A stretch of DNA of 64,000 nt from an uncultured Candidatus Saccharibacteria bacterium (GCA_964446535.1 CAYUOR010000002.1:43372-107371); one strand, 5' to 3'. Shown: positions 2,652-64,000, counted from the first letter of the stretch. Notes: a model not told the origin generated them from the sequence alone. A program made the numbers and translations.

Positions 2652-4181
2652 ATGTCCGTAAAACTTGCTTTATTGCTTGCATTGCTTGCCGCGTCGGCCG
2701 GTATCGGCTTCGGCTATTTCTTGCGCATTTTAATCTCCTTGGGCCGCAAGGGCTCTATGGAGCTCGACATAAAACAAATGGAGCTTGCCTCAAAGGAAGA
2801 GGCTCAACGCATTTTAGAGGTAGCGGAAACTCGTAGCAAAGAGATTCTAGAGAGGGCTCAAAGAGAATTTAGAGAACGCGAAGACAGAACCAAAAAGATC
2901 GAAGACAGACTGGTTAAAAAAGAGGAAGTTTTAGACAAACGCCAGTCGGATTTAGAACAGGAAGCCCTAAATGCCAAGAAAAAAGCCGCAGAATTAGCGG
3001 AGTTAAAAGTAAAAATAGAACAACTTGTAAAAGAACGCGAACATGAACTCGCGAAGGTGGCAGGATTGTCTCGGGTGGAAGCCAAGAAGGAACTCATGAA
3101 ACTAGTGGAAAAGGAAGCCGAAGAGGATATTCTCATTAGGACCAAAAAACTAGAAGCCGAAAGTAACGAGCGTTTGGAAAATCGTGCCAAGGAAATTCTC
3201 GCCACCGCCATCCAGAGACTCGCCGTCTCGACGGCAAGCAATTTAATGGGTACAACCATTACCCTACCCTCAGACGAGATAAAGGGAAAGATTATCGGTA
3301 AAGAAGGCAGGAATATTAAGGCCTTCGAACGGGCAACTGGCGTTGAAGTAATAGTTGATGACACGCCAAACTCTATCACCCTCTCTTCTTTTGACCCGGT
3401 TCGTCGAGCCATGGCCCGCTTGGCACTAGAAAATCTAATATCAGACGGACGAATTCAGCCTGCAAAAATTGAAGAATTTGTTGAAAAAGCCGACGAAGAA
3501 ATAAATAAAATTATTAAAGAAAAAGGAGAACAGGCAGCCATCGATTGCGGAGTCTACAACCTGGATCCGAAACTTATATCTCTACTTGGACGCCTGCACT
3601 TTCGCACGAGTTACGGTCAGAATGTTTTGGACCACTCTATTGAAATGGCGCACATTGCGGGCATCATAGCCAAGGAACTTGGCGTCGATGTCGCCACGGC
3701 CAAAGCCGGAGCTCTCCTACACGACATAGGCAAGGCGCTTGACCATGAGGTGGCCGGTACACACGTTGAAATCGGTAGAAAAATTTTGGACAAGTTCAAC
3801 GTGCCTAAGGCAGTAATCCAGGCCATGCAGTCACATCACGAAGAATATCCATACGAGACCATAGAATCGGTTATTGTTCAGACCGCGGACACTATTTCCG
3901 CCGGAAGACCAGGTGCTCGTCGCGATACGGCCGAACGCTATCTTAAGCGCCTTGAAGAACTTGAGGCGATAGCTCTTTCCTTCGAAGGAGTCGAGAAAGC
4001 CTATGCCCTATCAGCCGGGCGTGAAATTCGAGTTTTTGTTTTCCCCGACAAAGTTTCAGATCTCGAGGCCCAAAAGCTTGCAAGAAATATTGCCACAAGA
4101 ATCGAAAGTGAGCTTAAATATCCGGGAGAAATCAGGGTGAATGTCATAAGAGAGACCCGCTCCATAGAATTTGCTCGCTAA
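2652..4181 (+). CDS. rny: Ribonuclease Y
   Basis: N-terminal TM helix, coiled-coil, KH domain (GKEGRNIKAFERATG) and HD domain (LLHDIGK). Confidence 0.9.
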   Translation: MSVKLALLLALLAASAGIGFGYFLRILISLGRKGSMELDIKQMELASKEEAQRILEVAETRSKEILERAQREFREREDRTKKIEDRLVKKEEVLDKRQSDLEQEALNAKKKAAELAELKVKIEQLVKEREHELAKVAGLSRVEAKKELMKLVEKEAEEDILIRTKKLEAESNERLENRAKEILATAIQRLAVSTASNLMGTTITLPSDEIKGKIIGKEGRNIKAFERATGVEVIVDDTPNSITLSSFDPVRRAMARLALENLISDGRIQPAKIEEFVEKADEEINKIIKEKGEQAAIDCGVYNLDPKLISLLGRLHFRTSYGQNVLDHSIEMAHIAGIIAKELGVDVATAKAGALLHDIGKALDHEVAGTHVEIGRKILDKFNVPKAVIQAMQSHHEEYPYETIESVIVQTADTISAGRPGARRDTAERYLKRLEELEAIALSFEGVEKAYALSAGREIRVFVFPDKVSDLEAQKLARNIATRIESELKYPGEIRVNVIRETRSIEFAR

Positions 4182-6109: not shown

Positions 6110-6184
6110 TGGTGCCCCCAGCAGGAATCGAACCCACATCACCTGTTCCGAAGACAGGCACTTTATCCATTAAGCTATGGGGGC
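6110..6184 (-). tRNA. tRNA-Arg (anticodon TCG)
   Basis: cloverleaf on the minus strand with anticodon stem CCTGT/ACAGG and loop CTTCGGA. The T-loop TTCGATT and a 3' CCA are encoded. The T-stem contains G-U pairs. Confidence 0.6.
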
Positions 6185-6212
6185 TAAAGTAATGTTACAA
6201 GGGATTTTCGAG

Positions 6213-6284
6213 TGCGACTAGGGAGAATCGAACTCCCATCTCGTCCTTGGCAAGGACGCATTCTACCACTAAACCATAGTCGCA
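6213..6284 (-). tRNA. tRNA-Gly (anticodon GCC)
   Basis: D-arm GTTTAGTGGTAGAAT, anticodon loop TTGCCAA, T-loop TTCGATT, acceptor GCGACTA/TAGTCGC. Confidence 0.7.
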
Positions 6285-6354
6285 GGTGAGAAAGATAATA
6301 ACGTATTAGGAGAAAAAAATCGAGATTTTGAAATGACTTTATCGCATGCTAGGA

Positions 6355-6380
6355 TAGACGCTTACGGGCTGTACGAGTAC
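6355..6380 (+). repeat. tRNA acceptor-stem minihelix repeat, copy 1 (CGGGCTG-TACGAGTACAT-CAGCCCGA)
   Basis: the 7-bp stem is identical to the acceptor stems of the downstream tRNA-Pro genes, and the 11-nt loop is near-identical to copy 2. Confidence 0.4.
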
Positions 6381-6391
6381 ATCAGCCCGAT

Positions 6392-6416
6392 CACTCAGAA
6401 TAAAAAGTTATGCCAG
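6392..6416. other. Perfect palindrome AAAAGTTATGC-CA-GCATAACTTTT (possible bidirectional terminator or protein site)
   Basis: 11-bp inverted arms with A-run/T-run flanks, located between the minihelix and tRNA-Pro. Confidence 0.4.
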
Positions 6417-6427
6417 CATAACTTTTG

Positions 6428-6498
6428 TCCTTCGTTACGGGCTGTAGTACAGCGGTAGTATACACGCTTCGGGAGTGTGAGACCCGAGTTCGATTCTC
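6428..6498 (+). tRNA. tRNA-Pro (anticodon CGG)
   Basis: acceptor CGGGCTG/CAGCCCG, anticodon stem CACGC/GTGTG, loop TTCGGGA, T-arm CCGAG-TTCGATT-CTCGG. Confidence 0.75.
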
Positions 6499-6522
6499 GG
6501 CAGCCCGATGCCAAGTTTGGAA

Positions 6523-6593
6523 AAAATCTAGTCGGGCCGTAGTATATCGGTAGTATGCATGCTTTGGGAGCATGAGGGCCGAGTTCGATTCTC
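6523..6593 (+). tRNA. tRNA-Pro (anticodon TGG)
   Basis: acceptor CGGGCCG/CGGCCCG, anticodon stem CATGC/GCATG, loop TTTGGGA. Confidence 0.8.
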
Positions 6594-6605
6594 GGCGGCC
6601 CGAAA

Positions 6606-6631
6606 GAAAAAATGTACGGGCTGTATGAATA
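6606..6631 (+). repeat. tRNA acceptor-stem minihelix repeat, copy 2 (CGGGCTG-TATGAATACAT-CAGCCCGA)
   Basis: same stem as copy 1 and as the tRNA-Pro acceptor stems. Confidence 0.4.
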
Positions 6632-6679
6632 CATCAGCCCGAGCGTTCGGAATGAATATCAAAGCTCGCTTTGCTATTA

Positions 6680-6750
6680 TTCCTCACTACGGGCTGTAGT
6701 ATAACGGTAGTATCTGCCCATGGGGTGGGTAAGGCCCGGGTTCAATTCCC
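6680..6750 (+). tRNA. tRNA-Pro (anticodon GGG)
   Basis: acceptor CGGGCTG/CAGCCCG, anticodon stem TGCCC/GGGTA, loop ATGGGGT, T-arm CCGGG-TTCAATT-CCCGG. Confidence 0.7.
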
Positions 6751-6755
6751 GGCAG

Positions 6756-6826
6756 CCCGAAAGAAGCGGGATTAGTTTAGTGGCAAAACGACAGTTTTCC
6801 AAACTGTAGTTGGGAGTTCGATTCTC
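6756..6826 (+). tRNA. tRNA-Gly (anticodon TCC)
   Basis: acceptor GCGGGAT/ATCCCGC, anticodon stem ACAGT/ACTGT, loop TTTCCAA, T-loop TTCGATT. Confidence 0.8.
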
Positions 6827-6846
6827 CCATCCCGCACTTTTTCCCT

Positions 6847-50433: not shown

Positions 50434-50852
50434 TGGTGGAGGTGGCGGGAATGAGCCCGCGTCCAAGGAAATGTCTCCGACGAATCTAGCACGCCTAGAC
50501 CGATTTTTCCGCCTTACGGCGAATCTCGATTCTCAAACTATAAATCGGACAAAACATTTGAGATTCAAAGCTCTTTAGTTTGGCGCCGAGAGGAGCACTC
50601 TCTGCGTTACAATCCGACAGATAAGCACCTGAGATCTCGTATCGGATGGCGAGATAACAGGCGTTCGCTTAGGCGAGCTTACGCTCGAGCGTAGGCGAAA
50701 GCAAAGTCGTTTGCCGTAAAGTACGGCGAAACAATAGACTTTGCCCGTGCGACGATATTGTCAGCACTTAAATTTTCCAAGGGTTTAAGGAGTTCTTGGA
50801 GCTCCGCGTGCCACGGCGGGGAACTGGTTTCCATGTCGAAACTGGCACCCCC
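50434..50852 (-). ncRNA. ssrA: tmRNA (SsrA)
   Basis: 5' end GGGGGUGCCAGUUUCGACAUGG matches the tmRNA consensus GGGGCUGAUUCUGGAUUCGAC. The 3' end GGACGCGGGCUCAUUCCCGCCACCUCCACCA matches the tRNA-like T-arm/acceptor GGACGGGGGUUCAAAUCCCCCCAGCUCCACCA. There is an internal tag ORF GCA AAC GAC UUU GCU UUC GCC UAC GCU CGA GCG UAA. smpB lies immediately upstream. Confidence 0.85.
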
Positions 50853-54957: not shown

Positions 54958-55031
54958 TCCGCCCGCCACGATTCGAACGTGGGACCCCCGAGGTATAAGC
55001 TCGATGCTCTAACCAGCTGAGCTACGGGCGG
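54958..55031 (-). tRNA. tRNA-Ile with anticodon TAT (UAU), C1-G72 acceptor pair
   Basis: D-arm GCTCAGCTGGTTAGAGC (Ile/Ala/Met type), anticodon stem TCGAG/CTCGG, loop CTTATAC, T-arm CCACG-TTCGAAT-CGTGG, acceptor CCGCCCG/CGGGCGG. Confidence 0.65.
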
Positions 55032-60892: not shown

Positions 60893-60920
60893 TTTTCGGA
60901 ATTATCAATTTTTAATAGCT

Positions 60921-60997
60921 AGCTCATTAACCTATGAAATACTATGAAATTTTGCAAAAAGCTTGACTGGAATATAGCACATATGATAACCTATGAA
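60921..60997 (+). promoter_or_regulatory. Direct repeats AACCTATGAAATA (x2) / CTATGAAAT (x3) upstream of hsdM; candidate operator
   Basis: copies at 60921-60933 (followed by tandem CTATGAAAT at 60934) and 60985-60997; TTGACT -35-like hexamer at 60963. Confidence 0.3.
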
Positions 60998-60999
60998 AT

Positions 61000-62703
61000 A
61001 TGAAGAAAACATCAAACGAGAAGGCACTACTCTCAATCAGCGAAGTTTCAAGCATTTTTGGTATTCACCAAGACACGCTTCGTAATTGGGAGAAAAAAGG
61101 ACTTATTACTCCACTCCGTGTTGGTCCACGAAAAGATCGAAAGTACAAGCCGGAAGACATTGAGCGTATTGCGAATGATAAAAGTATTTTCAAGGGGCTT
61201 GATGAACCTCTCGATGATGGAAAAATGAATCTCACCCAACTCAAGCAATTCCTTTGGAGAAGTGCCGATATTTTGCGTGGAAAGATAGACAGTTCTGATT
61301 ACAAAAAATATATATTTGGACTCCTTTTCTACAAACGCATCAGTGATGTGTGGGACGAAGAATATAAAAAAGTTCTTGAGGAATATCATGACGAAGAAAT
61401 TGCTCGCGCAGATCACAATCACCGTTTCCAAGTTCCGAAAGATTGCCGATGGGAAGTAATACAAAAACAAGCAGAGGGTATCGGGCAGAAACTCAATGAA
61501 ATTTTTGATAAACTCACAAACGCAAACAGTCCCAAGCTCGACAAGATTTTTGATGATCTAGATTTTGCCAACAAGGATAAATTTCCAAATACTACTCTAC
61601 AAAATTTAATAAACCATTTTTCAAAACATAATTTTGGAGACAACTACATCAGCTCTGATCTTCTTGGGGATGCATACGAATATCTCATTGAGCAATTTGC
61701 GGCGGATGCGGGTAAAAAAGGCGGAGAATTTTACACTCCGCGTGAGGTTGAGCGGGTAATAATAAACATTTTAAAACCTCACGAGAAAGACCATATCTAC
61801 GATATGGCAGTTGGCTCTGGCGGTTTCCTACTCGAGGCGTATCACTATCTGCGAGAACAAGCTGGAGAAAAGAAAGCTCGCTCACTCTACCTTTACGGGC
61901 AAGAAATAAACATTGGTACATACGCAATTGCAAAAATTAACATGTTTCTCCACGGGCTTGATAGTGCAGACATTCAGCGCGGAGATACTCTTGCCGATCC
62001 AAAATTTTTGAATCCTGACGGATCGCTAAAAACCTATGATATCTGTGTTGCAAATCCGCCCTACTCCATTAGTGAATGGGAAGATCAGATTTTTGCCGCG
62101 AATAAACACGGAATTCTTGATGGTTATGAAATGCCTCCGGCAAAAAAAGCCGATTACGCCTTTGTGCTCCACATGGTGAAGTCCATGAATAAAAACGGTC
62201 GTGCGGGAATTGTGCTTCCTCACGGGGTACTTTTCCGAGGTGGCGCTGAAGGACGAATCCGTGAGCAACTGATAAAAAATGATCTCATAGAGACCGTCAT
62301 CGCTCTCCCCGCAAAGCTTTTCTATGGCACAGGTATTCCGGCGGCGATCGTGATATTTAACAAGAACAAACCAGAAGCTCACAAGAATAAAATTCTAATT
62401 ATAGACGCGGAAAAAGATTTTGAAGAAGGTAAAAACCAGAATCGCCTTCGCAAAAAAGATATTGAAAAAATTGTTTCGGCTTTTGAGAGTTACCGCGATG
62501 TTGAGAAATATGCTCGCATCGTGGGTATCAAAGAGTTGGAAGAAAATGAGTTCAATCTCAATGTCCGTCGCTATGTAGAAAATGGTGATGAGGAGGAAGT
62601 TGTAGATGTGAAAACAGTTTGGAGTGAATTGAAAGAAATTGAGAAGGAGCGCGAAGTGATTGATAAGAAGGCCGTCAATTATTTAAAAGAATTAAAATAT
62701 TAA
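61000..62703 (+). CDS. hsdM: Type I restriction-modification N6-adenine DNA methyltransferase subunit HsdM with N-terminal MerR/excisionase-type HTH domain
   Basis: HTH LLSISEVSSIFGIHQDTLRNWEKKGLITP; HsdM_N LKQFLWRSADILRG; the AdoMet motif follows within 61800-61830 (frame uncertain); catalytic NPPYS. Confidence 0.85.
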   Translation: MKKTSNEKALLSISEVSSIFGIHQDTLRNWEKKGLITPLRVGPRKDRKYKPEDIERIANDKSIFKGLDEPLDDGKMNLTQLKQFLWRSADILRGKIDSSDYKKYIFGLLFYKRISDVWDEEYKKVLEEYHDEEIARADHNHRFQVPKDCRWEVIQKQAEGIGQKLNEIFDKLTNANSPKLDKIFDDLDFANKDKFPNTTLQNLINHFSKHNFGDNYISSDLLGDAYEYLIEQFAADAGKKGGEFYTPREVERVIINILKPHEKDHIYDMAVGSGGFLLEAYHYLREQAGEKKARSLYLYGQEINIGTYAIAKINMFLHGLDSADIQRGDTLADPKFLNPDGSLKTYDICVANPPYSISEWEDQIFAANKHGILDGYEMPPAKKADYAFVLHMVKSMNKNGRAGIVLPHGVLFRGGAEGRIREQLIKNDLIETVIALPAKLFYGTGIPAAIVIFNKNKPEAHKNKILIIDAEKDFEEGKNQNRLRKKDIEKIVSAFESYRDVEKYARIVGIKELEENEFNLNVRRYVENGDEEEVVDVKTVWSELKEIEKEREVIDKKAVNYLKELKY

Positions 62704-62707
62704 ATGT

Positions 62708-63253
62708 ATGGAGAAATATATAATTTTTGAAGGAAATATTGACCAACAGGCAACACTTAGACTTGTTAACGCAATTCAAAATGCAATAAACCAAGCACCT
62801 CAGGCAACAAAGGTAACTATAATATTTTCCTCTCTTGGGGGAAGTATATATGATGGTTTCCTCTTGGCTTCTTTTATCCAAAACTCAAGAGTTCCGATTG
62901 CTATTCACGCTGTAAATCATATTGATTCAATTGCAAATGTTGTCTATTTATCTGTAAAAGAAAGAACAGCAGAATCTCATACGAAGTTTTATATGCATGG
63001 CGCCTCAACACAAGGAAATTTCGACGAGAAAGCACTTAAAGAACAACTTTCTTCGATTAAGACCAATAATAGTCGCATAGCTCACTTTGTGACTGCAAAT
63101 TCGGGCATTAGTCTCAAGAAAGTGAGATCAATGATGGAAAGCGGAACAACGATTTCAGCTCAAGAAGCTTTAAAGTATAAAATTGTTCAAAAAATAATGC
63201 ATCGTGAAGTTCCTCCAGATGCAATTAGAGAAGAAATAATTTATGTCAATTAA
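62708..63253 (+). CDS. ClpP-like (S14 family fold) serine peptidase paralog embedded in the Type I R-M operon
   Basis: ClpP-like order of motifs: FSSLGGSIYDG (compare INSPGG.V..G), candidate Ser in HIDSIA, candidate His in YMHGAS, C-terminal ISAQEALKYKIVQKIM (compare SA.EA..YGL.D.I). Starts 4 nt after the hsdM stop, and the hsdS start overlaps its end by 11 nt. Confidence 0.55.
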   Translation: MEKYIIFEGNIDQQATLRLVNAIQNAINQAPQATKVTIIFSSLGGSIYDGFLLASFIQNSRVPIAIHAVNHIDSIANVVYLSVKERTAESHTKFYMHGASTQGNFDEKALKEQLSSIKTNNSRIAHFVTANSGISLKKVRSMMESGTTISAQEALKYKIVQKIMHREVPPDAIREEIIYVN

Positions 63254-64000
63254 ATCTTCACAACAAAATATTCCCAGTGGATGGCAAGAAACCAAACTTC
63301 TTGATTGTCTTCGCATTCCATCAAAGCTTTCGGGTATAAAACTTTCTGAATATGAGAAAGAGGGTGATTTTCCTGTTTTTGATCAGGGGCAAGATTATAT
63401 TAGTGGATTTTCATCAAACAAAGACTTAGTGGTTAAAGATGTCCCTGCAATACTTTTTGGTGACCACACTCGTATTGTGAAATATATAAAAAGTCCATTT
63501 GTTGCAGGAGCCGACGGAACCAAAATATTTTGGGCAAAAGATGGTTTTGATCCAACATTTCTTTATTATTTGGTTTTGAGTCAAAAAATTCCCAATACTG
63601 GATATAACCGACATTTCAAATTTTTCAAAGATATAAAAGTAATAATTCCTGAATCTAAAACCGAACAACAAAAAATTGCAGAGATTTTGGGGACGGTGGA
63701 TGAGGATATTGCGAAAACAAAGGAAGTAATTCAAGCGACAGAAAAGCTTAAGCGAGGGCTTATGCAACAGCTCTTTACTCGCGGGATTGGGCATACAAAA
63801 TTTAAGGAAACAAAAATCGGACAGATTCCTGAGGACTGGGAATTAGTGAAGATGAAAAATATTTGTACAGTAAGACAAGGTCTTCAAATTGCAATTTCTC
63901 AAAGATTTTCAGAGTATAAAGAAGGTAGATACAAATATATTACTTTGAAAAGCATAAAAGAGAATATTTATGATTATATTGAATCACCTAAACAGTCAGT
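63243..64000 (+). CDS. hsdS: Type I restriction-modification specificity subunit HsdS (partial, runs off window end)
   Basis: target-recognition-domain hallmarks: N-terminal LP.GW...L, DYISGFSSNKDLV (Methylase_S); central conserved helix KIAEILG..D..I..T...I.....LK.GLMQQLFTRG; start of a second TRD. Confidence 0.75.
   Translation, partial: MSIKSSQQNIPSGWQETKLLDCLRIPSKLSGIKLSEYEKEGDFPVFDQGQDYISGFSSNKDLVVKDVPAILFGDHTRIVKYIKSPFVAGADGTKIFWAKDGFDPTFLYYLVLSQKIPNTGYNRHFKFFKDIKVIIPESKTEQQKIAEILGTVDEDIAKTKEVIQATEKLKRGLMQQLFTRGIGHTKFKETKIGQIPEDWELVKMKNICTVRQGLQIAISQRFSEYKEGRYKYITLKSIKENIYDYIESPKQS

Follow-up and report, generated by a model that had tools for sequence, protein, structure and literature searches.

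A ClpP-fold gene embedded between hsdM and hsdS and recurrent beside restriction–modification genes of uncultured CPR bacteria

A 181-aa open reading frame with the features of a ClpP-fold protein lies between hsdM and hsdS of a Type I restriction–modification (RM) operon in the 64,000-nucleotide stretch of DNA analyzed here (the window). Judged by its sequence and neighborhoods, this gene, for which we use the working name clpL, appears to be an accessory gene linked to restriction that has not been described before and that recurs in many uncultured CPR bacteria, organisms in which RM is considered the dominant form of defense. That Type I RM operons can harbor embedded genes is already known, as is the classical control of restriction by ClpXP. 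In a literature search across 8 million full texts, no account of a ClpP-fold gene lying inside RM operons came up, and no model in PADLOC-DB v2.0.0 matches clpL. No such gene was found in the embedding survey of Payne et al., either in its text or in its supplements, the latter incomplete as available, so that absence there is no proof.

New immune functions have repeatedly been traced to accessory genes carried within RM operons (PrrC, TgvAB, and Hma-embedded candidates), and clpL unites the themes of RM-embedded cargo and ClpP-type proteolysis in little-studied CPR bacteria. Further leads exposed by the analysis are the putative module formed by clpL and a 74-aa protein, a sharply defined slot for cargo behind hsdM, and a candidate operator/promoter for HsdM proteins fused to a MerR-type helix-turn-helix (HTH).

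Operon layout, leader, and composition

The operon comprises the following features, all on the + strand of the window:

60893-60999 (+), AT-rich leader 5' of hsdM, 27% GC, with a TTGACT box and three CTATGAAAT boxes
61000-62703 (+), hsdM, methyltransferase subunit of the Type I RM system, MerR-type HTH at its N-terminus; stop TAA at 62701-62703
62708-63253 (+), clpL, 181-aa open reading frame; ATG at 62708, TAA at 63251-63253
63243-64000 (+), 5' part of hsdS, specificity subunit; ATG at 63243, extending past the window end

The coordinates bear out the initial annotation, which had placed the 181-aa reading frame between hsdM and hsdS with a 4-nt gap on one side and an overlap on the other. 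The clpL ATG lies 4 nt after the hsdM stop, and the hsdS ATG at 63243 falls within TATGTCAATTAA, giving an 11-nt overlap with the end of clpL. Both hsdM and hsdS are present and co-oriented, as in a Type I RM operon. HsdM scores 292 bits against TIGR00497 (cut-off 242.75) and matches Pfam N6_Mtase (E = 3e-108), HsdM_N (E = 2e-27), and MerR_1 (E = 3e-11), as well as the PADLOC profile MTase_I (E = 2e-144); its MerR/HTH_17 DNA-binding domain occupies residues ∼10–59 (window 61000-61180). HsdS matches Pfam Methylase_S with 54 bits (cut-off 22, E = 2.6e-14), PADLOC Specificity_I (E = 1e-44), and a profile made from related loci (E = 7e-56). The MerR/HTH_17-fused form of HsdM is extremely common in CPR metagenomes.

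The leader carries TTGACT at 60964, with CTATGAAAT boxes around it at 60932, 60942, and 60991; the 64 kb hold no copies of this box besides these three, and the same box layout is found 5' of related MerR-HsdM genes in L083-L088. From this pattern, the leader is likely the promoter and operator of the operon, and the CTATGAAAT boxes are probably the operator on which the N-terminally fused MerR-type HTH of HsdM acts, in which case the RM operon would be self-regulating. A consensus scan for + strand terminators and promoters inside the operon found no terminator and no significant promoter, with nothing above shuffle expectation. This anatomy is compatible with co-transcription and with translational coupling of clpL to both hsdM and hsdS.

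GC content at third codon positions (GC3) is 0.24–0.38 in the operon compared to 0.58–0.65 in the adjacent genes. Given this contrast, the operon is a compositionally foreign, horizontally acquired, low-GC Type I RM island in a CPR/Patescibacteria bacterium. The window also contains ordinary housekeeping features: a tmRNA gene at 50434-50852 (-), a cluster of six tRNAs at 6113-6836, and another tRNA at 54958-55031.

Fold and active site of the clpL protein

clpL is assigned to the ClpP superfamily (MEROPS S14 type) consistently by searches against Pfam, NCBIfam, and PDB sequences, by the alignment of the family, and by the AF2 model together with its Foldseek matches. Its Pfam CLP_protease (PF00574) score is 55.1 bits (gathering threshold 20.2, E = 1.1e-14), over profile positions 16–181 of 182. 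The AF2 monomer model has a pLDDT of 93.2 and a long handle helix at residues 107–130. Foldseek gives a best TM score of 0.87 to PpClpP1 of Pseudomonas plecoglossicida (9UXT), which is also the best PDB sequence match (E = 2.5e-9), and TM scores of 0.77–0.81 to the ClpPs of T. thermophilus, E. coli, S. aureus, and M. tuberculosis. The ClpP motifs pointed out in the initial annotation are all present and align to ClpP features: LGGSIYDG at residues 43–50, HIDS74IAN at the catalytic Ser, FYMH97GA at the catalytic His, and ISAQEALKYKIV at the C-terminal helix.

When clpL is aligned with T. thermophilus ClpP and with PpClpP1, Ser74 and His97 fall on the catalytic Ser and His, and both are invariant in an alignment of 30 family members. 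Of the Ser-His-(Asp/Glu) triad that the initial annotation put up for checking, the first two residues are at their canonical positions; the column of the canonical catalytic Asp holds Gly146, which is invariant across the family. The alignment starts only near ClpP residue 28, so the axial loops of the N-terminus, which serve to dock the ATPase, are missing. Family-level profiles are matched below their cut-offs, with 20.9 bits against the ClpP equivalog TIGR00493 (cut-off 308.6) and 50.8 bits against NF045542, Clp_rel_HeadMat (cut-off 120); PHROG 94, a head-maturation protease family, scores 52 bits. Taken together, sequence and model indicate a divergent, N-terminally truncated homolog of ClpP-fold peptidases with a predicted Ser74/His97 pair.

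PpClpP1 is likewise N-terminally truncated; it has a Ser-His-Pro "triad" and low peptidase activity, and forms a wide-pore tetradecamer with a 42-Å pore that does not bind ClpX (PMC12900304). Together with its canonical paralog, it assembles into more active hetero-tetradecamers (PMC12900304). As clpL lacks this Asp and PpClpP1 shows low activity, the role of clpL may be weak or even non-proteolytic.

A canonical ClpP is encoded elsewhere in the window, at 1970-2545 (CLP_protease, 282 bits). No ClpX gene was found adjacent to it, the next gene being that of RNase Y at 2652-4181. Neither the window operon nor any related operon contains a ClpX-like or other unfoldase partner. Without Asp or Glu at the triad position, docking loops, or a ClpX in the operon, the anatomy is not that of a ClpXP-like machine degrading HsdR.

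Distribution of clpL, its small partner, and the cargo slot

We gathered 88 related loci from genome and metagenome contigs and placed the clpL homologs in a midpoint-rooted neighbor-joining tree (without support values). Homologs at least ∼70% identical to the window clpL form a single clade, and in 14 of its 19 distinct loci hsdM or hsdS adjoins clpL, co-oriented and tightly spaced every time. The arrangements in this clade are:

hsdM-clpL-hsdS: window, L029, L034, L078
hsdM-clpL: L003, L015
clpL-hsdS: L002, L030, L033, L035, L040
clpL and hsd genes with one or two intervening genes: L031, L032, L082
clpL with Abi_2 upstream: L036
clpL after a Type II pair of N6_N4 methyltransferase and MutH-type gene: L001, L079-81
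clpL after an HNH gene: L028
clpL before a reverse transcriptase: L037

The hsdR gene lies downstream in L029, L035, and L078 and upstream in L003, and was not seen adjoining the operon in L031 or L082. Its position in L029 and L078, the closest complete relatives, agrees with the initial supposition that hsdR of the window operon lies beyond the window end.

Neither hsdM nor hsdS was detected in any of the 31 distinct sister-clade loci. Set against 14 of 18 loci in the RM clade (decayed-methyltransferase fusion locus excluded), this gives a Fisher p of ∼5e-9, a value that refers to metagenomic contigs and ignores shared ancestry. The HsdM partners of clpL belong to three lineages with mutual identities of only 26–37%, and the clpL sequences found beside the two divergent ones (L003 and L034) are still 73–76% identical to that of the window. 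The same placement next to such divergent HsdM lineages rules out a chance insertion of clpL. With dN of 0.05–0.21 and saturated dS, dN/dS is ∼0.1 or less where dS can be estimated, and clpL is under strong purifying selection. The arrangement, described at the outset as departing from the canonical hsd layout, is thus one whose hsd linkage recurs and is maintained by selection.

The wider family has other surroundings. Sister-clade neighborhoods are heterogeneous and mostly housekeeping, with one Type II RM system in ∼31 loci; that these clades reside among housekeeping genes rather than in defense islands means that the clpL family is not intrinsically a defense family. Among relatives of ≤ 66% identity the gene is routinely found outside RM contexts, a pattern that the initial annotation had linked to chance insertion, and only one derived clade is RM-embedded. 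In most loci at ≤ 66% identity, a conserved gene of ∼74 aa comes next after clpL, at a spacing of -35 to +10 nt:

74-aa partner gene, directly 3' of clpL in non-RM clades: L004, L007-L013, L022-L027, L039-L076 (e.g. L043 6541-6762)

The partner has the consensus ..NMGCTDI.FPDPKDDLIVA.FNCKEITSFVAD.PGWTYSGIHLDPTG.RQYKIDFKK, matched no Pfam or PHROG family, and is predicted to adopt a generic fold of one helix and a four-stranded sheet. It was seen in CPR-type bins only, and it is absent from the window and from all RM-clade loci. By sequence, clpL and the 74-aa protein appear to form a CPR-specific two-gene module carried by most sister clades. In the tree, the RM-embedded sequences group together as a clade within clpL lineages most of which have the small partner; this one derived clade lost the partner and became embedded in RM operons, mostly of Type I and once of Type II.

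So far, the clpL family has been seen only in CPR-type metagenomic bins. In a profile search of the whole library, E < 1e-30 was reached by only ∼10 clusters (at 50% identity) and E < 1e-10 by 777, and the relatives sampled from it were CPR too. In plasmid and phage collections (50,697 phage records), clpL matches were only ∼25% identical, and both plasmid contexts that were looked at, one in the lysis region of a phage-plasmid and one in a metabolic cluster, were unrelated. A 198-aa clpL variant (P0038; L014, L017-L020) lies between rpmG and gap; its first ∼30 residues match the start of EcoRI-type adenine methylase (PF13651, E = 1e-4), of which the first 22 residues are fused in frame to clpL, and this fusion looks like the scar of a deleted or decayed RM system.

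The MerR-HsdM family to which the window HsdM belongs comprises >120 clusters (at 90% identity) that are 84–93% identical to it. Two inspected relatives, 91–93% identical to the window HsdM, have an unrelated 117-aa reading frame in the slot of clpL, with the same junction of stop, 3–5 nt, and ATGGA:

L083 2982-3335, 117-aa reading frame in the hsdM-hsdS slot
L088 8715-9068, 117-aa reading frame in the hsdM-hsdS slot

This reading frame has no Pfam, PADLOC, or PHROG match and appears, from its position, to represent another embedded cargo family. Since relatives with HsdM this similar carry other cargo, the RM system can do without clpL, which is a facultative, swappable cargo of the slot directly 3' of hsdM. 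Sister operons hold proteins of known or candidate defense function in the same or nearby slots: SduA (Shedu), a Hypoth_Ymh protein (PD-Lambda-3_B match), a DUF4145 protein (PD-T7-4 match), and a weaker PDC-S32 match. Further cargo also occurs in the clpL-bearing CPR Type I RM operons themselves, its kinds including Shedu SduA, a Hypoth_Ymh/PD-Lambda-3_B protein, a PDC-S32-like protein, and Abi_2:

Further cargo in clpL-bearing operons: L078 7764-9005; L082 8549-9298; L029 2779-3618; L036 3-647; L040 1805-3163

L040 also has a beta-flower protein and a tyrosine recombinase, the latter possibly serving hsdS shuffling.

Candidate roles of clpL and comparison with known systems

We favor, at a probability of roughly 0.4, a PrrC-like role for clpL, namely that of a second-line effector or guard linked to RM. 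Three observations fit it: the guilt-by-embedding pattern, sister slots filled with defense cargo, and a partner lost precisely in the clade that became embedded. PrrC-type embedding extends over 14 distinct loci and three HsdM lineages. PrrC itself is embedded in the EcoprrI Type I RM operon (PMC12707154), TgvAB are defense genes embedded in a Type I RM operon of V. cholerae VPI-2 (PMC11411939), and embedding in RM operons is an established marker of defense function (Payne et al., bioRxiv 10.1101/2024.01.29.577857).

Under such a mechanism, clpL would be made together with the M2S1 complex, which would hold it inactive and so take over the restraining role assigned to the lost 74-aa partner. 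If the RM complex were disabled or overwhelmed, the ATP-independent peptidase would be freed to degrade host or phage proteins. A ClpP-type protease would then be added to the repertoire of defense effectors. Against this effector or guard role, clpL is without a sensor domain, and it is not obvious what would trigger a peptidase on its own; the lack of a PADLOC-DB v2.0.0 match, the mostly housekeeping neighborhoods of the sister clades, and the possibly weak or non-proteolytic activity also count against it, and embedding could equally reflect hitch-hiking.

A reading that we put forward only tentatively has clpL as an RM-coupled, ATPase-independent proteolytic module, a swappable cargo of mobile CPR RM operons that would act directly on RM biology. 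It might degrade the nuclease subunit, as a portable form of alleviation for naive hosts, or destroy phage anti-restriction proteins or host targets when RM is inhibited; the 74-aa partner of the sister clades would be its inhibitor or substrate, in a toxin–antitoxin-like pair.

The main rival to the effector or guard role, possible though doubtful, is that clpL provides built-in control of restriction by degrading the nuclease, whether HsdR or a Type II REase, or by altering the host ClpP machine. Such control would delay restriction while a new RM island methylates a naive chromosome, or after DNA damage, and would amount to an operon-encoded version of the ClpXP-dependent alleviation known for Type IA/IB systems, in which ClpXP degrades HsdR and is needed for acquiring the system (PMC12707154). 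The position of clpL directly between hsdM and hsdS, so that it would be produced when the methylase is, fits this proposal, as do the imported low-GC character of the operon and the occurrence of clpL with a Type II methyltransferase–REase pair, where delaying the nuclease is equally critical. The genome also encodes a canonical ClpP, and mixed rings are conceivable given that PpClpP1 hetero-tetradecamers with canonical ClpP boost ClpX-dependent degradation (PMC12900304). If clpL did regulate restriction, mobile RM islands could carry their own establishment factor. This proposal is weakened by the 91–93% identical HsdM relatives that have other cargo in place of clpL, by operons with no hsdR visible beside them (L031 and L082), by the lack of both an operon unfoldase gene and docking loops in clpL, and by sister clades that live without RM.

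We regard as unlikely a passenger or selfish hitch-hiker whose role is cellular or addiction-type and unrelated to restriction, and which persists because the cargo slots of mobile RM islands favor horizontal spread. The slot is indeed promiscuous, the same junction bearing the unrelated 117-aa reading frame in sister operons; the wider family sits in housekeeping neighborhoods, and one lineage retains clpL after decay of the flanking methylase. However, the adjacency is very specific, always co-directional and tight, and it recurs with three lineages of HsdM as well as with a Type II system, while loss of the 74-aa partner exactly in the embedded clade and strong purifying selection also speak against a mere passenger.

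Very improbable are a remnant prophage head-maturation protease and the organism's housekeeping ClpP, both effectively excluded by cut-offs and context: although PHROG families and Clp_rel_HeadMat score 50–52 bits, about like Pfam CLP_protease, clpL falls below the NF045542 and TIGR00493 cut-offs, no capsid, portal, or terminase genes were seen next to it in any annotated locus, its phage matches reach only ∼25% identity, and the window already encodes a canonical ClpP.

Comparison with known systems sets clpL apart from each of them. Phage head maturation proteases (NF045542; PHROG 94) share with it an ATPase-independent ClpP fold without axial loops, as reflected in the ∼50-bit scores, but clpL is below the family cut-off and has neither structural-gene neighbors nor a scaffold or capsid fusion. 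BrxL, the Lon-like protein of BREX type 1, is similar in that a protease-family domain is encoded within a methylation-based defense operon; it is, however, a large DNA-binding ring of the AAA+/MCM-like kind, with a "protease" domain that functions in assembly, whereas clpL is a bare 181-aa ClpP fold with its Ser and His intact and not homologous.

PrrC, TgvAB, and the families of Payne et al. (2024) resemble clpL in being accessory genes inside hsdMSR, co-oriented, and exchanged with other cargo; the cargo of clpL sister operons comprises SduA, HEPN/Ymh, DUF4145/PD-T7-4, PDC-S32-like, and Abi_2 proteins. The difference lies in the cargo itself, a ClpP-fold peptidase, which was not found in the texts of those papers or in their supplements as far as these were available. 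Restriction alleviation by ClpXP, as for EcoKI and EcoAI, likewise ties a ClpP-family protease to Type I restriction and to entry into naive hosts, but it depends on a host housekeeping protease that needs the ClpX unfoldase, whereas clpL lies in the operon itself, with no nearby unfoldase and no docking loops. PpClpP1 is like clpL in its length of ∼180 aa, absent axial loops, retained Ser and His, and non-acidic third position (Pro; Gly146 in clpL). The two are only 22% identical, and while PpClpP1 is a chromosomal paralog studied with canonical ClpP and with no reported RM link, clpL is an operon-embedded cargo restricted to CPR bacteria.
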